Assembly (NCBI GenBank): GCA_963829725.1 | Contig: CAWHJW010000005.1 | Coordinates: forward strand, 369,976-433,975 | Source of the DNA: an uncultured Actinomycetes bacterium | Lineage (GTDB): Bacteria > Actinomycetota > Actinomycetes > Streptosporangiales > Streptosporangiaceae | Reading direction: 5' to 3' | Length of the DNA stretch: 64,000 bases | In this document: positions 13,573 through 55,254 of the stretch, in pieces | Numbering within the stretch: position 1 is the stretch's first letter | Layout: each line of letters begins with the position of its first letter | The notes under the pieces: generated by a model | The model's database searches: none | The model's input: only the letters and a program-made list of their open reading frames with translations | What the model was told of the DNA's origin: nothing | Program-made: the position numbers and the translations under genes

Positions 13573-16077
13573 TCAGCCCTCGCCGGCGAAGGCCGCACCC
13601 AGCTCGCGGAAGGCGCCGCGCAGGTCGGCGGCCGAGACGGTGGTGAGGTCCGCGGCGCTGGCCTGATCGTCCAGGTGGGCCACCCGCACGTCGCGGGCCG
13701 CGCAGGCCCGCTCGAACAGGCTCCGGGCGAACCGGCCGTTCCCCAGCTCGTCGATCTGGCGGTGTTGTGCCGCCAGCGTGAAGATCTCCTCCAGCACCGG
13801 CAGCGCGTCCGGCTCGAAGCTGTCCCCGTGCTGCTCGGCGATGACACCGGCGATCCGGCACAGCTCACCGGGGGTGTAACTGGGGAAGCCGATCCGCACG
13901 CTGAACCGTGACCCGAGCCCGGGGTTGCTGTGCAGGAAGCGGTCCATGTCGGCCGGGTACCCGGCCAGCACGATCACCAGCCGGTCCCGGTCGTCCTCAG
14001 CCCGCTTGAGCAGCGTGGCCACCGCTTCCGAGCCGTAGGCGTCCCCGCCCGAGTAGCCGATGTTGTAGAGCGAGTAGGCCTCGTCGATGAACAGCACCCC
14101 GCCGAGCGCGGAGTCGATCAGCTTGCCCGTCTTGATCGCGGTCGAGCCGAGGTGCTCGCCGACCAGGTCGGCCCGGTGTGCCTCGATCACCTCCGGCCGG
14201 ACCAGCAGCCCCAGCGCGGTGAAGATCCGGCCGAGGATGCGGGCGACCGTGGTCTTGCCCGTCCCCGGGGGCCCGGTGAACACGAAATGCCGGACCGGGG
14301 GCTGGCTGGACAGGCCCTGCCGCTCCCGCAGCCGGGCCACCCGCAGCTGGGCCGCGATCTCGTGTACCTGGCGCTTGACCGGCTCTAGGCCAACCAGCTC
14401 ATCGAGTTCCGCGAGCGCGCTGTCCAGGGTGGGCGCCTCGGTGTAGCCGCGGAACCGTGCGGTCAGCTCGGCCCCGGCCCGCTCCAGGTCCGCCGCCTCC
14501 AGCGTGGTCAGCTCGGCGGGCGTCGGCTCGGCCCCGTCCGCCATCACCCGGACGTCCCGCGCCCGGCCCGCCTTCTCCAGGAGGTTGCGCACGAAGCGCC
14601 CGTTGCCGAGCTCGTCGGCGAGCCGGCGGCGGCCGATATCCTCCATCATCCGCCACAGGGCCGGCCGGGCGTCCGCGTCGAGCATCTCCCCGCGCTGCTC
14701 CAGGTACAGCTCGGATAGCGCCATCAGCTCGGCCGGGCTGTAGCTCGGGAACTTGACCCGGAGGCCGAACCGGGAGTTCAGCCCGGGGTTGCTGGCCAGG
14801 AAGCCCTCCATCTGCTTCTCGTAGCCGGCCAGGATGATGATGAGCTCGGACCGGTTGTCCTCGGCCCGCTTGAGCAGCGCCTGGACCGCCTCGTGGCCGA
14901 ACCGGTCCCCCTGGCCCTCACTCTCGTTCACCAGGCTGTAGGCCTCGTCGATGAACAGGACCCCGCCCATTGCACTGTTCACCAGGTCGTTCGTCTTGAT
15001 GGCGGTGGCGCCAAGGTACTCACCGACCAGGTCGGCGCGCTGCGCCTCCACCACCGCCGGGGTGTCCAGCAGCCCGAAGGCATAGAAGATCTTCGCGATG
15101 ACCCGGGCGACCGATGTCTTCCCGGTACCCGGCGGCCCGAGGAAGACGAAGTGCTGCATCGGCTTGCCGGTGTCGTAGCCGGCCATGGCCCGCCGCCGGG
15201 CGGCCTCCACCGAGGCAGTGATCTGGCGGACCTGTTCCTTGACCGATTCCAGGCCGATCATGTTCTCGAGCTCGGCCATGGCCTGGGCCACAGTGATCTC
15301 GGGCGGCTGCGGGTCAGCGCCGGCCCGCTCGCGCGCCGCCGTGGCATCCGCCGGGCGCACCGCGCCTTCCGCGGTCTGCACCACCCGGGCGGGATCCCCC
15401 GGCCGGCCGCCGCGCCCGGAGCCCGGGTACCCGGTGGTCCGGGCGCCGGGGCGGGGCGCCACGGCCGCGCTCCCAGGGCGGTGCGGCGCCGCGAGCGCGC
15501 CGCTCCGGGCCTGCTGGCGGCTGCGCGCCCGCGCCTCCTGCTGCGACTTGCCCAGCCGCCAGAGGAGCACACAGAGCGCGAGACCCCAGGCGATCGCGTC
15601 GCCGATCACCGGCCGGCTGGTCGCCAGCCACCAGGCCAGCAGGCCTGGCGGGAGCGACCAGACCATAGCCCACGCCACCGTCCGGCAGGGCACGTAGCGG
15701 CGGGAGATCGCCGGGGCGTGCGCCGCCGGGACGGCCACGCAGGGCAGGAGCGCCAGCGGGACGATCGCGGACCCGACCCGGTTGGTGACGGCGGCGACGA
15801 GGAGCACCGCCACCAGGCCCCAGACGGCGACGAAGACGGAGGCGAGCACCCGCCGGCTGCCCTGCCACGCAGCGACCGGCCCGTAACCAAGTGCAATCGC
15901 GATGACCAGGTCCCAGACCCGCGCGCCGAGGCTGAACGAGCCGACGATCAAGGCGACCAGCACGATGACCAGCAGGATCTTCACCGGCAACGGGGCTACG
16001 GCGATGGACCGGCGCACGCGCTCAAGCCCTTCCCGCGCCATTCGCCCGCCAGGTACGGACCTGTCCTCTGGCCGCAT
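13573..16077 (-). CDS. membrane-anchored protein with two tandem CbxX/SpoVK-type AAA+ ATPase domains
   Basis: The N-terminus has several hydrophobic helices (ILLVIVLVALIVGSFSL.., VFVAVWGLVAVLLVAAV..). Two modules follow, each with a Walker A (FLGPPGTGKTSVAR and FTGPPGTGKTTVAR) and a Walker B (GGVLFIDEAYSL, twice), plus LIIILAGY / LVIVLAGY and NGRFVRNL / NGRFARSL. Confidence 0.85.
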   Translation of the reverse strand: MRPEDRSVPGGRMAREGLERVRRSIAVAPLPVKILLVIVLVALIVGSFSLGARVWDLVIAIALGYGPVAAWQGSRRVLASVFVAVWGLVAVLLVAAVTNRVGSAIVPLALLPCVAVPAAHAPAISRRYVPCRTVAWAMVWSLPPGLLAWWLATSRPVIGDAIAWGLALCVLLWRLGKSQQEARARSRQQARSGALAAPHRPGSAAVAPRPGARTTGYPGSGRGGRPGDPARVVQTAEGAVRPADATAARERAGADPQPPEITVAQAMAELENMIGLESVKEQVRQITASVEAARRRAMAGYDTGKPMQHFVFLGPPGTGKTSVARVIAKIFYAFGLLDTPAVVEAQRADLVGEYLGATAIKTNDLVNSAMGGVLFIDEAYSLVNESEGQGDRFGHEAVQALLKRAEDNRSELIIILAGYEKQMEGFLASNPGLNSRFGLRVKFPSYSPAELMALSELYLEQRGEMLDADARPALWRMMEDIGRRRLADELGNGRFVRNLLEKAGRARDVRVMADGAEPTPAELTTLEAADLERAGAELTARFRGYTEAPTLDSALAELDELVGLEPVKRQVHEIAAQLRVARLRERQGLSSQPPVRHFVFTGPPGTGKTTVARILGRIFTALGLLVRPEVIEAHRADLVGEHLGSTAIKTGKLIDSALGGVLFIDEAYSLYNIGYSGGDAYGSEAVATLLKRAEDDRDRLVIVLAGYPADMDRFLHSNPGLGSRFSVRIGFPSYTPGELCRIAGVIAEQHGDSFEPDALPVLEEIFTLAAQHRQIDELGNGRFARSLFERACAARDVRVAHLDDQASAADLTTVSAADLRGAFRELGAAFAGEG

Positions 16078-20812: not shown

Positions 20813-23800
20813 TCAGCTGCAGCCACTGGTGGCTCCGCAGCCTTCGCAGACGTAGCAGCTGCCGGCCGGCCGCATCTTCGTGCCGCAGGTCAGGCAGAGC
20901 GGGGCGTCGGCGGTCCGGCCCTGCTGCGCCTCGACCAGCTCCACCGAGCTGTGCGGCTGAAGGCCGGGGCTCCCGGGGCTGCCCGGCTCTGGCTGGTCCT
21001 GGTGCCGCTCCGCGGGCCGCCGCACCGGCGCGGACTGGGCCATCTCCCCCGGGTCCTGCTCCTCCGCGAGCGCGGCCGGGTCCTCACCAGCCAGCTGGGC
21101 GGCCCGCTCGCCGGCGGCCAGGATGCCCATGTCGGCCCGGGTCTCGTAGGGCAGGTGGTCCAGCGCCAGGCGGCGGAACACGTAGTCCAGCACCGAGCTG
21201 GCGATCCGGATGTCCGGGTCGTCGGTGATGCCGGCCGGCTCGAACCGCATGTTGGTGAACTTCTCCACCCACTTCTCCAGCGGCACCCCGTACTGCAGGC
21301 TGATGGAGATGGCCATGGAGAAGGCGTCCATGACGCCGGCCAGGGTGGATCCCTGCTTGCCGAGCTTGAGGAACAGCTCGCCCACGCCGTCGTCGGGGTA
21401 CTTGGACGCCGTCATGTAGCCCTCTGCCCCGGCGACGGAGAAGCTGGTCACCGTCGCGGTGCGGTTCTTCGGCAGGCGACGGCGCACCGGGCGGATCTCG
21501 TGCGGCGAGTGGTCTGCCTCGGCGGCCGCCGCTTCCGGCTTCTTCCTCGCATCGGACAGCGGCTGGCCGACCTTGCAGTTGTCCCGGTACACCGCGAGCG
21601 CCTTGAGGCCGAGCTTCCAGCCCTGCAGGTAAATGGACTCGATGTCCTCGACCGTCGCCGATTCCGGAAGATTAACGGTCTTGCTAATGGCCCCGCTGAG
21701 TGCGGGCTGCACGGCGGCCATCATGCGCACATGACCCATGGGGCCGATCGACCGCTCGCCCATGGCGCAGTCGAATACGTCGTAGTGCTCCTGCCGCAGG
21801 CCCGGCGCATCGACGACATGCCCGTGCTCGGCAATGAACTCGACGATGGCTTCGACCTGCTCGGGCTGGTAACCCAGATTTTTCAGGGCCCGGGGCACGG
21901 TCCGGTTGACGATCTGCATCGAGCCACCGCCAACCAGCTTCTTAAATTTGACCAGAGCCAAATCCGGCTCGACCCCGGTAGTGTCACAATCCATCATCAA
22001 GCCTATGGTCCCGGTCGGCGCCAGTAGGCTCGCCTGCGCATTTCTATAACCATTCTTTTCGCCGAGCGCGAGGCATTTATCCCAAGCCTTATTGGCTTCG
22101 ACGAGGATTTCGGAATCCATTCCGCCGATGGTCTTGACCTGGCGGCTGGCCTCGGCGTGCTTGCGCATCACCCGCTTGTGCGCGGTGGCGTTGCGCTGAT
22201 AGCCGTCGTAGGGACCGACGACCGCGGCGAGTTCCGCGGACCGGCGGTAGGCGGTGCCGGTCATCAGCGAGGTGATGGCGGCGGCGATAGCCCGGCCGCC
22301 GTCGGAGTCATAGGCGTGCCCGGTCGCCATGAGCAGCGCGCCCAGGTTGGCGTAGCCGATGCCGAGCTGCCGGAAGGCCCGCGTGATCTCCCCGATCTTC
22401 TCAGTAGGGAAGTCCGCGAAGGAGATCGAGATGTCCATCGCGGTGATGATCAGCTCGGTGATCTGGCGGAACCGGTCCACCGCGAACGTGTCGTCGTCGC
22501 GCAGGAACTTCAGCAGGTTGATGCTGGCCAGATTGCAGGAGGAGTTGTCCAGGCTGAGGTACTCGCTGCACGGGTTACTGGCGGTGATCCGGCCCGACTC
22601 GGGGTTGGTGTGCCAGTCGTTGATCGTGCCGTCGTACTGGATGCCCGGGTCCGCGCACGCCCAGGCCGCCTGGGCCATCGTGCGGAACAGCGTCCGCGCG
22701 TTCAACGGTTTCCACGACCTCGCCGGTCATCCGGGCCAGCAGGTCGAACTGGCCGCCCTGTTCCACCGCGCGCATGAACTCGTCGGAGACGCGGACCGAG
22801 TTGTTCGCGTTCTGGTACTGGACGCTGGCGATGTCCTTGCCGCCGAGGTCCATGTCGAAGCCGGCGTCCCGGAGGACCCGGACCTTCTCTTCCTCGCGGG
22901 CCTTGGTCTCGACGAACTCCTCGACATCGGGGTGGTCCACGTCGAGCACGACCATCTTGGCGGCCCGGCGGGTGGCGCCCCCGGACTTGATGGTCCCGGC
23001 CGACGCGTCCGCGCCGCGCATGAACGAGACCGGGCCGCTGGCCGTGCCGCCCGAGGACAGCAGTTCCTTGCTGGACCGGATCCGGGACAGGTTGACCCCG
23101 GCGCCCGAGCCGCCCTTGAAGATCAGGCCTTCTTCCTTGTACCAGTCCAGGATCGAGTCCATCGTGTCATCGACGGCCAGGATGAAGCAGTTGTGCACCC
23201 GGAGATTCCCGGAGAGGTACTCACCGCTCTCGGTCTGGATGTCGAAGACCTCCATGGGCCCCAGCGCCTCGATGCGCTCCAGCTCCACCACATGGCGGTC
23301 CGCACCGCCGACTTCAGGCTCCACTTGCAGGAGCGAATCACCCGCGCTGAGGTCGCCTGCCGGAATGAATGCGCCGTTAGCGATATCAGCCGCCCGCCAC
23401 ACGAGGTGGTCGGCGGTGACATCGAGGGTGTAACCCGCCTTGGTGTGCAGCCGGAGCACGTCCTTCACCCCGTTGGCCTTGGTGGCCAGGATCTTGGTCA
23501 GGCCATGCGCGTCGTACACCTTCGTCCCGACCGCATTCTCTGTCACCAGCCTGCCGATGGGCACCAGCCCGGCGGGGGTGCTCACCAAGGCGTCATAGGG
23601 CTGGCAGGCTGACACCTGCTGCGGGGAGTTGGTGCCGACGTTGAACCAGACCGGGGAGTTGAAGCTGAAGATCTGGTGGGTGAGCGCGTGGCACAGCTCG
23701 TGCTCGAAGATCTCGGCGTCTTTGGGGGTGGCGAAGTAACCGTGCTCCCGGCCGGCGGCCACGTACGTGCCTACCACCCGGTTGACCAGCTGCTTGAGGC

Positions 23801-24074
23801 TCCACTCCCGCCCCGGGGTACCGACCGCACCGCGGAAGTACTTGGTGGTGACGATGTTGGCCGCGTTGACCGACCAGAAGTCGGGGAACTCGACCCCGCG
23901 CTGCTCGAAGTTGACGGTCCCGTCCCGCCAGTTGGTCATGACGACGTCGCGGCGCTCCCAGGTGACCTCGTCGTACGGGTGCACGCCCTCCCGGGTGTGG
24001 ATCCGTCCGATCGTGAGCCCCTTGCGCGAGCCCTTGCCGCCCCGCGGCGAGGTCCCGCTCACCGTCTCCGTCAT
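20813..24074 (-). pseudogene. nrdJ: class II (adenosylcobalamin-dependent) ribonucleotide reductase NrdJ, intein-containing, one extra base at about 22703
   Basis: Conserved NrdJ blocks are present: TTKYFRG, FSFNSPVWFNVGT, FILAVDDTMDSILDWYKEEGLIFKGGSGAGVNLS, ASNPCSEYLSL, LLAPTGTIGLMMDCDTTGVEPD, and the C-terminal CLTCGTKMRPAGSCYVCEGCGATSGCS. The frame breaks at ..GEVVETV / NARTLFRTMAQAAWACADPG.. and the length is 3n+1. Confidence 0.95.
23190..23606 (-). other. 139-aa mini-intein inserted in NrdJ (no homing endonuclease domain)
   Basis: The extein sequence NSPQQVSA / CFILAVDD is interrupted by CQPYDALVSTPAGLVPIG...GEYLSGNLRVHN. It has Cys1, a block B TxxH (VTADH), a terminal HN, and a +1 Cys. 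At 139 residues it is too short to hold an endonuclease. Confidence 0.85.
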
Positions 24075-36295: not shown

Positions 36296-37777
36296 TCAGG
36301 CGGGCAGCCGTTCCGGGCCCGCCTGGGGTCCGGCCCGGCTGGCTCGCCAGGCCGCCTCCGCCTCGCCCATCGGGGTAGCCGGCGGACCCTGCATGAACGG
36401 CCAGATCTCCTCGGCGATGCCACGCCAGTCCGCGGTCGCGGCCAGTTCGCCCAGGATCGCGAACAGGCCCAGGTTGATCCGCTGCAGGATGACGTAGGAC
36501 CGGGGCACGCTCACGTACGCCGCCAGCGGGCTGCGCAGGTCGAAGAACCGCCGTACCACCGCCGAGGCGTAGTCCCCGGTCATGGTCACCGGGCCCGGCC
36601 GGCGGACCGTGTCGTAGAACACGGCCATGTGCTCAACGACGGTCTCGGTGCTCAGCGGCGTGTCAGGGCGCAGGAACCCGGCCTGGATCATGCTGGACCG
36701 GAACGCCTCCGGGTCATCCTCCACGCACAGGTAGCGCACCATGTCCATCAGCGGCTGCAGCTCGCCGGGGCTGAAGTGCTTGACCAGCCCGAAGTCGAGG
36801 AACGTCACCCGGCCGCCCCCATGGAACAGGTAGTTGCCGGGGTGCGGGTCACCGTTGAACGCCTGCGCCTCATACAGGCTCCGGAAGGTGAACCGGTAGA
36901 TGGTCTCCGCGGCCAGGTCCCGCTCGTGCTGGGACCAGCTGGCCAGCTCAGCGAACCGGGCGCCGTCGGCCAGGTCGGTGGTCACCACCCGCCGGGTGCA
37001 CAGCTCGCCGACGATGTCCGGGATGTGCACGGTCGGGTGGCCCCGGTAATGGTCGGCGAACAGCTGCTGGTTGCGGGCTTCCCGGCGGTAGTCCAGTTCT
37101 TCCAGCACGCGCTCCCGCAGCTCGCCGAGCAGCTCGTCCACGTCCTGGCTGGGCGCGGTGATCCGCAGCATGCGCCGCAGCAGGGCGACGTTCTGCAGGT
37201 CCGCGGCAATGGTCTCGGCGATGCCGGGGTACTGGACCTTGACGGCGACGGCCCGGCCGTCCCGGGTGATCGCCCGGTGCACCTGCCCGATCGAGGCGGC
37301 CGCGATGGGCTCCCCGTCCCACCGCGCGAACACCTCCTCGGGCGGGCGGCCGAACTCCTCGGTGATGACGCCCGCGGCCAGCTCGGCGGTCATCGGCGGC
37401 ACGCTGTCCTGCAGCCGGCTCAGCGTCCGGCGGACCGCCGGGGACAGGCCGTCGTCCACGTAACTGGCCATCTGGCCGATCTTCATCAAGACGCCCTTCA
37501 TGGCGCCCAGGGTGGTGGCGACGTCCTCGGCGGTCTGCAGCGCGAGGTCGTTGCGCAGCTGCTGGCGGTGCTCGCCGGCCAGGATGAACAGCCGCGGCGC
37601 GTTGCCCGCGTAGCGGACCCCGCCGCGCACCGCGAGCCGCACCGCGGCGCCGCCCCGGGACATCCGGAGCCGCAGCGGGCGGCCGTGGCCCGGCACCCGC
37701 CAGCCCAGCCGCCGGCCGAGCAGGACGAGGCCGGCCAGCGAGGCCCCGATGGTGAACCCGGTGACCAGCTTTCTCAC
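36296..37777 (-). CDS. ABC1/UbiB/AarF family atypical kinase
   Basis: ..MKIGQMASYVDDGLSP..EPIAAASIGQVHRAIT.DGRAVAVKVQYPGIAETI..VVTTDL..FNGDPHPGNYLF..VTFLDFG.. Confidence 0.85.
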   Translation of the reverse strand: MRKLVTGFTIGASLAGLVLLGRRLGWRVPGHGRPLRLRMSRGGAAVRLAVRGGVRYAGNAPRLFILAGEHRQQLRNDLALQTAEDVATTLGAMKGVLMKIGQMASYVDDGLSPAVRRTLSRLQDSVPPMTAELAAGVITEEFGRPPEEVFARWDGEPIAAASIGQVHRAITRDGRAVAVKVQYPGIAETIAADLQNVALLRRMLRITAPSQDVDELLGELRERVLEELDYRREARNQQLFADHYRGHPTVHIPDIVGELCTRRVVTTDLADGARFAELASWSQHERDLAAETIYRFTFRSLYEAQAFNGDPHPGNYLFHGGGRVTFLDFGLVKHFSPGELQPLMDMVRYLCVEDDPEAFRSSMIQAGFLRPDTPLSTETVVEHMAVFYDTVRRPGPVTMTGDYASAVVRRFFDLRSPLAAYVSVPRSYVILQRINLGLFAILGELAATADWRGIAEEIWPFMQGPPATPMGEAEAAWRASRAGPQAGPERLPA

Positions 37778-38784
37778 GGGCGCCGCGCCGCGCGCGCCCG
37801 CAAGGCGATCCGCTGCCGGGCTTCCAGCACGCCCGGCTCGCCCATGAACACGGTGTCCAGCACGCCGAGCGCCTGGCGGATCTCGGCCCGCCGGGCGTCG
37901 GTCAGCGGCGGCACCTCGTACCCGTACATCTCGCGGGCCCAGTCAGGCAGCGTGCCGAGCGCGGCGTGCCGCACGTCCTGCCAGATCTCGGCGATGTCGG
38001 CCTCCAGGCCGGGCGGGTCGAGCAGGTAGTCCATGGATTCCCGGGCCGCCGGGGTGCAGCGCAACTCGGGCCTTACCGCGCGCAGGTAGGCATCGAGGGC
38101 CGGAACGCTGTCCGGGACGCGGTCGCGGGGCACCCCGACGAGTTCCGCCGCAGTCACTTGTTCCGCGACAAATTGCCCGCTCTCCTCAGCTGACAATGCC
38201 GTCCCGAACTGTGCGGCGGCGGCGAGGCCAGAATCGATGAAGGTGGCGTGCACGTAGAGCAGCAGGGCCGGGTCGCTGGCCGCGTACGGCTGGCCGGTCA
38301 CCGTGTCCACCCCGGTGACATGGTCGTGGATGCGCCGCACCCGGCCCGCGGCCCGCTCGGCGGCGGCCCGCTCGGCGAAGCTGACCGTGGCCAGGTAGGC
38401 GGAGGTGGCGGCCAGGCGGCCGACGGGATCCCGGCGCCAGTTGCTGTGCTGGTCCACCCCGGCCATGGCTAGCGGGTGCAGCGCCTGCAGCAGCAGCGCG
38501 CGCAGGCCGGCCACCGGCGAGGACAGGTCCGTGCTCACCCGCCAGGTGACGCTGCCGGGGCCGAAAAAACCCTCGTCCGCCGGGGCGTCCGGGATGCTGG
38601 CCGCATAGGCGGCGGCCGACCGGGCGACCAGGTCGGCCGCGGCCGCGTACGGGTCCGCGGTCACCGGGCTGGCCTGGTCATCGTGGCATGCAGGGTCATC
38701 GTGGCATGCAGATGCGGGGTCCTCATACCAGCCAAAATACCCAGCCACGGCGGGACCAAGGCCGGCCCGGACCTGGTACCGCAC
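37774..38784 (-). CDS. MpaB/DUF2236 family oxygenase-like protein
   Basis: ..FFGPGSVTWRVSTDLSSPVAGLRALLLQALHPLAMAGVDQHSNWRRDPVGRLAATSAYL..RVRRIHDHVTG.. A 4-bp overlap links it to the downstream kinase gene. Confidence 0.75.
   Translation of the reverse strand: MRYQVRAGLGPAVAGYFGWYEDPASACHDDPACHDDQASPVTADPYAAAADLVARSAAAYAASIPDAPADEGFFGPGSVTWRVSTDLSSPVAGLRALLLQALHPLAMAGVDQHSNWRRDPVGRLAATSAYLATVSFAERAAAERAAGRVRRIHDHVTGVDTVTGQPYAASDPALLLYVHATFIDSGLAAAAQFGTALSAEESGQFVAEQVTAAELVGVPRDRVPDSVPALDAYLRAVRPELRCTPAARESMDYLLDPPGLEADIAEIWQDVRHAALGTLPDWAREMYGYEVPPLTDARRAEIRQALGVLDTVFMGEPGVLEARQRIALRARAARRP
38676..38711. repeat. 18-bp perfect in-frame tandem duplication in the MpaB-like gene
   Basis: ggtcatcgtggcatgcag occurs twice. 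It is translated as ACHDDP-ACHDDQ in the N-terminus. Confidence 0.9.
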
Positions 38785-53469: not shown

Positions 53470-53818
53470 TCAGCGGGGCGGCTCCGGGTCGCTGATCCGC
53501 TGGTCGGCGACGACCGGCCAGGGCCGCGCCGAGCCGAAGGGCGTGATCGTCCCGCGCTCGTAGCCGGTGACCTCGTGGGCCACGTCCGCGGCCGGCATGG
53601 AGAGCCGGCTGACGCCGAGATCGCGCTGCGGGCCAGTCCGGCTGCTGGCCGCCGAGGTCACGCTGCGGCAGTTCCAGCACCAGCGCCGCCAGCGGCTCAG
53701 CCACGGCGTCCAGGTCGGCGGCGCGCAGCAGCCGGCGGCGCCGCCGGTCGGCGTGCACCGCCGCCTGCTGCGCCATGGTCCCGCTGGGCAGGAACACCGC
53801 GGCCGGCTTGCCGAGCAG
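53470..53818 (-). pseudogene. frame-broken remnant: PLP-aldolase-like GTM segment followed by a YbaK/ProX-like aminoacyl-tRNA deacylase C-terminal segment
   Basis: Directly after the PHP stop, and in the same frame, the sequence reads LLGKPAAVFLPSGTMAQQAAV..LAALVLELPQRDLGGQ. From about 53640 another frame reads DLGVSRLSMPAADVAHEVTGYERGTITPFGSARPWPVVADQRI. There is no credible start codon and no full-length domain. Confidence 0.3.
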
Positions 53819-54640
53819 CTAGAGCCGCCAGAAGTCCAGCGGGTCCCGGCCGGGCCGGAACCCGGCGGCGGCCGCGACGCCGGCCGCGTCCCGGAAGCGC
53901 GCGCCGACCTGCCCGGGCAGGTGCGCGTCACTGCCGAACGACAGGGCGCGGCCGCCCGCCTCGCGCCACCACCGGAGCAGGCCGGCCGAGGCGAGCGGGC
54001 TGGCCGTGTTGACCTCCAGCACCCGGCCGGACCGGGCGAGCGCCGCCAGCACGGCCCGGTACTCCTCCTCGAACGCGCCCTCGGCGTACTCCCCCGCCGC
54101 GGCCGGCCAGTACCTGCGGGGGAAGTCCAGGTGGGCGAGGACCTCGAACAGGCCGCTGCCCTCGATCAGCGCGAGTACCTCGGTGAAGTACCGGCGCATC
54201 ACCGGGCGGGCCGACCGGCCGTCCAGCAGCGAGCTGGCGTACACCAGGCGCCCCCCGCTGGGCAGCGTATGCACCGAGCCCAGTACCCGGTCGAACTGGC
54301 CGGACCCCAGCACCGCGGTGGCGCTGCCGGCGAACAGGTGCGGCTCGCCCGCCTCCACGCCGGACAGGATCCGCAGCGCCGGGTACCGGTCCCGGCACTC
54401 GCCCAGGCTAGCGAGGTACCCGGGGACGTCGAGCGGGCGGATCCGGTGCTGGGTGTTGGGCGCGACGCCGGCCACCCGCAGCGCGTCGCCGGGGCCGGCC
54501 GTGGTGAAGTCGAGGTGCTCGGTGAACGCCACCGATCCGATGCCCAGTTCGATGGCCCGCTCGCAGGCGGCAGCCATCGACGCACCCGGGCCGGTGTCGT
54601 GGGACCACTGCGAGTGAACGTGATTGTCCGGCGGGGGCAC
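53819..54640 (-). CDS. PHP domain (histidinol-phosphatase-like) metal-dependent phosphoesterase
   Basis: DNHVHSQWSHD..AFTEHLDF.. and later VLAHLD, SFGSDAH. The GTG at 54640 is preferred because the ORF limit at 54691 would overlap the tRNA. Confidence 0.8.
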   Translation of the reverse strand: MPPPDNHVHSQWSHDTGPGASMAAACERAIELGIGSVAFTEHLDFTTAGPGDALRVAGVAPNTQHRIRPLDVPGYLASLGECRDRYPALRILSGVEAGEPHLFAGSATAVLGSGQFDRVLGSVHTLPSGGRLVYASSLLDGRSARPVMRRYFTEVLALIEGSGLFEVLAHLDFPRRYWPAAAGEYAEGAFEEEYRAVLAALARSGRVLEVNTASPLASAGLLRWWREAGGRALSFGSDAHLPGQVGARFRDAAGVAAAAGFRPGRDPLDFWRL

Positions 54641-54663
54641 CCAGGAACGCCCGCGGTGCCCGG

Positions 54664-54739
54664 TGGTGGGGCCGATGGGATTTGAACCCATACTGCCAGG
54701 ATCCTAAGTCCTGTGCCTCTGCCATTGGGCTACGGCCCC
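54664..54739 (-). tRNA. 76-nt tRNA, anticodon UAG (Leu/CUA by anticodon), short variable loop, encoded CCA
   Basis: GGGGCCG-TA-GCCCAATGGCAGAGGC-A-CAGGA-CTTAGGA-TCCTG-GCAGT-ATGGG-TTCAAAT-CCCAT-CGGCCCC-A-CCA. The 7-bp acceptor, 5-bp anticodon stem and 5-bp T stem are perfect. U33, G37, GG in the D loop and TTC in the T loop are present. Confidence 0.85.
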
Positions 54740-54783: not shown

Positions 54784-55254
54784 TCAGGCCGCGAGGTCCT
54801 TGCGCAGCCGCTCCACGTGACCGGTCGCCTTCACGTTGTAGTAGGCCCGCTCCACCGTGCCGTCCGCGGCAATCACGAAGGTGGACCGGATCACCCCGGT
54901 GGTCTTCTTGCCATACATCATCTTCTCGCCATAGGCCCCGTAGGCCTGCATCACCTCGCGGCCGGGATCGGCGAGCAAAGTGAAATTCAGCGATTCCTTA
55001 TCCCGGAATTTGGACAGCTTTTCCGGGCTATCCGGAGAGATACCGAGCACGGTCAGGCCGGCCCCGCCGAGCGCACCGAGGTTGTCCCGGAAATCGCAGG
55101 CTTGCTTGGTGCACCCCGGTGTCATCGCCGCCGGGTAGAAGTAAACGATCACCCGCTGGCCGCGCAGTGAGGACAGGCTCACCGTCTTGCCGTCCGCATC
55201 TGCCAGCGAAAACTCCGGCGCCAGATCGCCTGGCGCCAGCTTGTGCTCGATCAC
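54784..55254 (-). CDS. bcp: thioredoxin-dependent thiol peroxidase (Bcp peroxiredoxin)
   Basis: ..APEFSL.DADGKTVSLSSLRGQRVIVYFYPAAMTPGCTKQACDFRD.. The GTG at 55254 has a GGAGGGA RBS. Confidence 0.9.
   Translation of the reverse strand: MIEHKLAPGDLAPEFSLADADGKTVSLSSLRGQRVIVYFYPAAMTPGCTKQACDFRDNLGALGGAGLTVLGISPDSPEKLSKFRDKESLNFTLLADPGREVMQAYGAYGEKMMYGKKTTGVIRSTFVIAADGTVERAYYNVKATGHVERLRKDLAA

Follow-up and report, generated by a model that had tools for sequence, protein, structure and literature searches.

The gene at 54664-54739 on the minus strand of the window, the 64,000-nt stretch of an uncultured Streptosporangiaceae genome analysed here, is very probably a working tRNA-Leu(UAG) with type I architecture, characterised by a short variable loop. 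Type I tRNA-Leu is an already known kind of tRNA; what is newer is the breadth of the family to which the gene belongs and an exchange of type I and type II genes at the bcp locus. The initial annotation had described a tRNA of class I shape bearing a Leu anticodon and offered three readings of it: an unusual Leu acceptor recognised through A73 and tertiary-structure elements, a tRNA of another identity that had gained a Leu anticodon and would reassign or mistranslate CUA, and an inactive relic. The family, the covariance model and the identity elements described below favour the first of these and point to a leucine acceptor. The features of the locus were as follows.

54664..54739, minus strand: tRNA-Leu(UAG), type I (class I shaped), 76 nt with encoded CCA (ARAGORN, Rfam, covariance model R1, identical gene on contigs L001 and L002)
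54714..54730, minus strand: D arm G10-A26, a 3-pair stem GCC/GGC with a C13-A22 mismatch and the loop AAUGGCAG containing G18G19 (Rfam alignment)
54704..54706, minus strand: anticodon UAG (plus-strand cta) with U33 and G37 on either side (sequence; ARAGORN puts the anticodon at position 34)
54692..54696, minus strand: variable loop GCAGU, 5 nt, positions 44-48, in which U48 can pair with A15 (Levitt pair; sequence)
54664..54666, minus strand: encoded 3' CCA (sequence)
54784..55254, minus strand: bcp (thiol peroxidase, 156 aa), 44 nt upstream of the tRNA (ORF; Pfam AhpC-TSA/Redoxin on the identical gene in L002)
53819..54691, minus strand: PHP-family phosphatase ORF, downstream of the tRNA (ORF; Pfam PHP on L001 and L002)

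ARAGORN called the gene as tRNA-Leu(tag) and Rfam matched RF00005 over its full length at 54667-54739 (63.3 bits, E=2.2e-11), with C13-A22 in the D stem as the sole non-standard pair of the alignment. Read directly, the tRNA is GGGGCCG-UA-GCCC-AAUGGCAG-AGGC-A-CAGGA-CUUAGGA-UCCUG-GCAGU-AUGGG-UUCAAAU-CCCAU-CGGCCCC-A-CCA. The perfect acceptor, anticodon and T stems reported earlier, together with UAG, U33, G37, the 5-nt GCAGT loop, A73 and the encoded CCA, were all recovered by ARAGORN, Rfam and inspection of the sequence, on the minus strand. Canonical class II tRNA-Leu carries a long variable arm (a stem-loop of more than 10 nt), and the variable region here was 5 nt. The tertiary elements related to LeuRS recognition (U8:A14, A15-U48, G18G19-U55C56 and U54-A58) were all present along with A73. 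In a minimum free energy (MFE) fold of the tRNA alone, the cloverleaf's D and anticodon arms did not form, and comparative structure was therefore used. The scan around the gene for sigma-70-like promoters and intrinsic terminators, which does not cover actinobacterial promoter types, found neither.

An identical tRNA was located on two independent contigs (L001 and L002) of one ENA metagenome, each with an identical RNase PH. Since the U33-UAG-G37 loop was also invariant in 11 orthologues, the UAG anticodon is not a sequencing error, and the suggestion that re-sequencing might return a different anticodon was not borne out. The encoded CCA differed in this respect, as orthologues carried CGU, CCU, CUC, CUU, CGA or CCG after A73 instead. 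Its presence in the window tRNA is probably incidental and, as the 3' CCA is not conserved, most relatives must depend on the CCA-adding enzyme.

The premise of the initial annotation that bacterial tRNA-Leu is class II was too absolute. In S. coelicolor one type I tRNA-Leu (CAA; A44C45A46G47C48) occurs with four type II tRNAs, UAG among these, and the single ScoLeuRS leucylates both types with kcat/Km values of 6.25 (type I CAA) and 14.2 s-1 uM-1 (type II) (Fan, Huang, Ji and Wang, NAR 2019; PMC6614811). The same study reported that the type I tRNALeu(CAA) gene could not be deleted, that U8:A14 matters for charging of the Streptomyces type I tRNA and that a variable loop of at least 5 nt with nucleotide 48 is required. 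It also listed A73, A14, A15-U48, G18G19-U55C56 and U54-A58 as the elements used by E. coli LeuRS, found that the LeuRS of E. coli and of S. purpurogeneiscleroticus cannot charge type I tRNA-Leu, and reported S. azureus to be without a type I tRNA-Leu. The window tRNA shares with the S. coelicolor type I tRNALeu(CAA) the xCAGx 5-nt loop, U8:A14, G18G19, A73, the T loop and a D arm GCCC...AGGC with C13-A22. It differs in its anticodon and acceptor stem, having UAG (CUN box, G37) and GGGGCCG where the S. coelicolor tRNA has CAA (UUR box, A37) and GCCCCGG. The hosts also differ (Streptosporangiaceae and Streptomyces), and the biochemistry was obtained for the S. coelicolor tRNA.

Short tRNA-Leu with the UAG anticodon has also been described, and this too runs against the class II premise. 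A short-variable-loop tRNALeu(TAG) occurs in Mycobacterium tRNA clusters alongside the normal long copy (Behra et al., BMC Evol Biol 2019; PMC6582537). In GenBank, actinophage genes of 75-76 nt are already annotated as tRNA-Leu(tag), and 80 phage records matched the window tRNA. Copies in Rhodococcus phage Francesca, Streptomyces phage Riptide and Thermobifida phage P318 were 80-88% identical to it and scored 77-84 bits on the covariance model R1 described below. The Mycobacterium and phage tRNAs have the anticodon and short loop of the window tRNA but sit on mobile elements, in arrays or in phage genomes, while the window gene is solitary and chromosomal at a conserved core locus. A 2024 study of M. 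tuberculosis described long variable loops only in tRNALeu-2, -3 and -5, implying that the other two are short, and the Streptomyces type I tRNA is absent from a 2023 review of tRNA identity. Animal mitochondrial type I tRNA-Leu resembles the window tRNA by description in being without the long variable arm and is charged by LeuRS, as would be expected of the window tRNA, but it is part of an organellar system that has a separate LeuRS, and ScoLeuRS does not charge human mitochondrial tRNALeu(UUR) (PMC6614811).

An anticodon-blind search was undertaken with a family pattern that fixed the D loop AR(N)UGGYAG up to C25-A26, the 5-nt variable loop xCAGx and the T loop, and left free the anticodon and positions 11-13, 22-24, 44, 48 and 73. 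No matches to the pattern were expected by chance in the window. The genome scan, in which each GTDB species was represented by one genome, returned at least 119 loci. Among the matches listed, the loci were mostly from Actinomycetota including Streptomyces, Micromonospora, Bifidobacterium, Corynebacterium, Gordonia, Nanopelagicales and Acidimicrobiia, with a few from Planctomycetota, Chloroflexota, Myxococcota, Cyanobacteria, Acidobacteriota, Bacteroidota and Glaciecola. All 121 genomic matches listed (117 from genome-scan loci and four in loci L001-L004) had a Leu anticodon, namely UAA in 58, CAA in 32, UAG in 25, CAG in four and GAG in two. At least 127 viral matches were present, and of the 127 listed every one had a Leu anticodon and 126 had A73. 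Non-Leu anticodons on the family body were thus 0 of 248 among the matches listed (121 genomic and 127 viral). Because the body in the matches listed is common to the UUR and CUN boxes and never occurs with a non-Leu anticodon, these matches argue for a Leu identity that is independent of the anticodon, the opposite of what a body borrowed from another isotype would give.

Positions left free by the pattern were also conserved across the 206 unique family sequences, with A73 in 205 and C13-A22 in 200. The 15-48 pair was A-U in 191 sequences and a covarying G15-C48 in nine, and the 11-24 pair covaried as CG, UA, AU or GU. A Streptomyces member of the family (L069) had the variable loop ACAGC, exactly as in the S. 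coelicolor type I tRNA. The short-armed tRNA-Leu family appears far more widespread than a single biochemical study suggests: among the matches listed every Leu anticodon was represented, and the sources included many phages as well as many orders of actinobacteria and a few further phyla.

Several loci carried more than one member of the family. Actinomycetospora sp. NBRC 106378 (L033, L037) had one type I tRNA-Leu gene with UAG at the bcp locus and a second, with CAA, at another site, so more than one isoacceptor per lineage can be type I. Dense chromosomal arrays with tens of tRNAs within a few kb were seen in L028 (Actinoplanes), L031 (Byssovorax), L032 (Amycolatopsis), L042, L047, L049 (Micromonospora tulbaghiae), L059 and L080, and these arrays held several type I tRNA-Leu genes with differing anticodons. 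In the Byssovorax array, type I genes were located beside type II Leu genes.

A covariance model (R1) was built from 71 unique genomic family members with UAA or CAA anticodons only, Streptomyces ones included and UAG ones numbering zero. The window tRNA scored 83.7 bits on R1 (E about 3e-22) and the UAG orthologues linked to bcp scored 79.6-87.9 bits. When R1 was run on 100 loci containing many other tRNAs and large arrays, loci that had been fetched by a pattern designed from the window tRNA with its anticodon left free, all matches of at least 63 bits were short tRNA-Leu. The best non-Leu tRNAs reached 60.5 (Ile), 58.7 (Asn), 56.5 (Arg) and 51.5 (Trp) bits, which placed the window tRNA 23 bits over the top non-Leu tRNA, and type II Leu tRNAs scored 37-60 bits. 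ARAGORN and an isotype model built for this family, a comparison of the kind proposed in the initial annotation, accordingly agreed on Leu.

The D arm had been described as resembling those of Gly, Gln and Trp tRNAs. This held as a raw likeness, since in an edit-distance comparison with 1,535 ARAGORN tRNAs the generic class I D arms of the GCUCAAUGGCAGAGC type were only 2 edits away and the type II Leu median was 8. It did not hold as a pointer to those identities, as we regard the C13-A22 pair with the AAUGGCAG loop as the signature of the type I Leu family in the sequences compared. The alternative description of the D arm as canonical tRNA-Leu-like was dropped because edit distance did not place the window tRNA nearer type II Leu. 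D-arm distance was therefore non-discriminating, and the argument for Leu identity is carried by the C13-A22 and loop signature and by the covariance model.

Structural constraint was assessed in 11 distinct UAG orthologues from Streptosporangiaceae MAGs, Sphaerisporangium, Micromonospora, Actinopolyspora, Actinomycetospora and Pseudonocardia. Standard pairing occurred in all 220 pair cells. Both sides had changed in 11 of the 20 pairs, including all five anticodon-stem pairs, giving 29 doubly changed cells. None of 500 shuffles reached this level of pairing and compensation, and slid registers of the alignment were just 30-52% paired. U33-U34-A35-G36-G37 was identical in all 11 sequences.

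The tRNA is located in a core chromosomal neighbourhood and not in a mobile element. rdgB and rph lie within a few kb of it, HAD and P450 genes are further neighbours, and no integrase or HNH gene adjoins the tRNA in the window. leuS was absent from the window, and in L001 and L002 no aminoacyl-tRNA synthetase domain was found within 10 kb of the tRNA. The longest PHP ORF runs 28 nt into the 3' end of the tRNA; judged from the position of the N-terminal DNHVHS motif, its true start is probably a GTG near 54640.

A side observation concerned the region beyond the PHP gene. In L001 (14217-15861), an intact beta-eliminating lyase and a 156-aa protein with a YbaK-type tRNA trans-editing domain lie between the PHP and HAD genes. 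In the window at 53491-53619 and 53765-53818 (minus strand), and likewise in L002, there were fragments corresponding to YbaK-like residues 74-116 (86% identity) and to 18 lyase residues. These fragments are a deletion scar two genes from the tRNA.

The comparison of orthologous loci around bcp that the initial annotation had proposed was informative. No exact-protein match was found for the longest bcp ORF, and a first homologue search with bcp returned close Streptosporangiaceae relatives alone (83-96% identity). In 17 further loci bcp adjoined a type I tRNA-Leu(UAG) at a distance of 15-630 nt, with both genes on the same strand except in Actinomycetospora. These loci came from Streptosporangiaceae, Sphaerisporangium, Micromonospora, Pseudonocardia and Actinomycetospora, representing at least three actinobacterial orders. 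Taken with the R1 scores, they indicate that the short form is essentially the normal architecture of tRNA-Leu(UAG) in the clade, contrary to the identity mismatch that had been raised.

Streptomyces loci were reached with a Streptomyces-like Bcp query, which yielded orthologues 90-95% identical to it. Six loci, S. azureus included, had bcp, then a tRNA-Leu(UAG) on the same strand, then rdgB and rph. In five of the six (L245, L247, L248, L250 and L251) the tRNA was 85-86 nt and type II. It resembled the window tRNA in its anticodon loop (UUUAGGU or CUUAGGA), A73, G/C-rich acceptor stem and T arm, as well as in its bcp, rdgB and rph neighbourhood, but differed in having a variable arm of about 15 nt and another D stem, and scored just 37-42 bits on R1. 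The sixth locus (L249, 7982-8056) had a divergent 75-nt type I-like tRNA-Leu(UAG) in the bcp slot with 59 bits on R1, which suggests repeated replacement at the locus. HNH_3 endonuclease genes were found between bcp and the tRNA in Streptomyces loci, and one also had an ABC transporter block.

As the window gene is the positional counterpart of the Streptomyces type II tRNA-Leu(UAG) in the bcp-rdgB-rph neighbourhood, it would most likely be a housekeeping CUA reader and not an accessory copy. Positional orthology is likewise the evidence from which it may be the sole decoder of CUA. A wider proposal, to which we give even chances, is that the ancestral type II gene of the bcp locus gave way to a type I tRNA in Streptosporangiaceae, Micromonospora and Pseudonocardiaceae, and that CUA has no other reader there. 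In its broadest form, the proposal treats type I tRNA-Leu as one phylum-wide family with all Leu anticodons, which phages and HNH-associated tRNA arrays also carry and may have spread. If so, actinobacterial LeuRS would in general accept tRNAs of either class, which extends well past the "some Streptomyces" described so far. The swap of type I and type II between lineages at the bcp locus offers a system for LeuRS/tRNA class co-evolution.

The codon targeted by this tRNA is rare, as had been stated earlier. A GC3-based gene call for the window gave 40 genes with 13,748 codons, of which 13 were CUA (0.95 per 1000) and one, rarer still, was UUA. The CUA at residue 145 of RNase PH aligned with Leu in eight of eight orthologues. 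In the reverse test, in which CUA codons in orthologues from genomes with a type I UAG tRNA were aligned to the window, the window residue was Leu in eight of nine and Val in one. The CUA in NrdJ aligned with Val in PDB 7b9p. Judged by motif, remaining CUA sites include PadR and LexA positions where Leu would be typical, and the PDB alignment obtained with LexA did not reach its N-terminal CUA site. Judged from the aligned residues, reassignment of CUA to a dissimilar amino acid is ruled out, with the proviso that the sites are few and that such a comparison is blind to low-level mistranslation.

Among the remaining explanations, it is possible but rather unlikely that the gene is a genuine type I tRNA-Leu(UAG) that is accessory or redundant, perhaps acquired from a phage or tRNA array, with a type II UAG copy elsewhere in the genome. 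The abundance of type I tRNA-Leu genes in actinophages, viral contigs and chromosomal tRNA arrays is compatible with such an origin, as are the HNH endonuclease genes between bcp and the tRNA in Streptomyces loci and the coexistence in Mycobacterium of a cluster-borne short tRNALeu(TAG) with the normal long one (PMC6582537). The window gene, however, is single, lies outside arrays at a core locus that is syntenic in at least three actinobacterial orders, and is adjoined by neither integrase nor HNH genes. It also fills the slot of the Streptomyces type II tRNA-Leu(UAG), so replacement is likelier than addition.

We consider it very improbable that the gene is a tRNA of another identity whose anticodon became that of Leu, with CUA thereby reassigned or deliberately mistranslated in the manner of tRNAProX. 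Textbook rules make a Leu anticodon unusual on a class I body, the D arm has a superficial likeness to generic class I D arms and a YbaK-type trans-editing gene lies two genes off in the related contig L001, but the window counterpart of that gene is only a deletion remnant. Each of the 248 listed tRNAs with the same body has a Leu anticodon, UUR and CUN boxes alike, the margin of 23 bits over the best non-Leu tRNA was obtained on a Leu-only model, and CUA falls at conserved Leu or aliphatic sites. Nor does the gene share the hallmarks of tRNAProX, which in Streptomyces and Kitasatospora combines C1:G72, A33, A34 and A15:A48 with an adjacent proSx and inserts Pro at Ala, Asn or Thr codons (PMC10404621). 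Both tRNAs are actinobacterial and appear at first sight to be mismatched in shape and anticodon, but the window tRNA has G1:C72, U33, U34 and A15:U48 with no synthetase gene within 10 kb, and shows none of the tRNAProX features. There is even less reason to credit the third reading, an inactive relic or pseudogene, which we give almost no weight. The rarity of CUA could make selection weak, and the empty promoter and terminator scan is in keeping with a relic, although actinobacterial promoter types lie outside its scope. Against this, the cloverleaf is intact with all universal tertiary nucleotides present, the 11 orthologues keep 100% of their pairs through 29 doubly changed cells with an invariant anticodon loop, and conserved genes use CUA codons. 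A working type I tRNA-Leu(UAG) is thus the preferred reading, and an actinobacterial tRNA that combines class I shape with a Leu anticodon gives no evidence that a codon is reassigned or mistranslated in a programmed way. Annotation pipelines and readers should not mark such tRNAs as isotype mismatches.

For a working tRNA-Leu(UAG), the following route is proposed. The tRNA would be transcribed downstream of bcp, possibly jointly with it, and processed to 76 nt. LeuRS would charge it with leucine without reading the anticodon, recognising the tertiary core (U8:A14, A15-U48, the G18G19/U55C56 elbow and U54-A58), the variable loop of at least 5 nt and the acceptor end. G37 following G36 is a standard TrmD substrate for m1G37 methylation, and the window tRNA would be expected to carry this modification. 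The mature tRNA would read the rare CUA codon as leucine and possibly also CUG by U:G wobble.

Other observations in the window and related loci included a split nrdJ gene, encoding a B12-dependent ribonucleotide reductase, at 20813-24074 on the minus strand. Its two ORFs, at 22575-24074 and 20813-22705, lie in different frames and share about 130 nt, and the downstream ORF covers only residues 432-925 of 7b9p. A frameshift, an assembly indel or a pseudogene could account for the split. A 93-nt "tRNA-Pro(agg)" called by ARAGORN at 38577-38669 (plus strand) had no Rfam match, falls within the high-GC3 ORF at 37774-38784 of the opposite strand and is almost certainly a false positive. In Thermobifida phage P318 (L244 2497-2570; MK240575.1 about 15700-15773), an unannotated type I tRNA-Leu(UAG) with 77.9 bits on R1 is located directly upstream of the small terminase gene.
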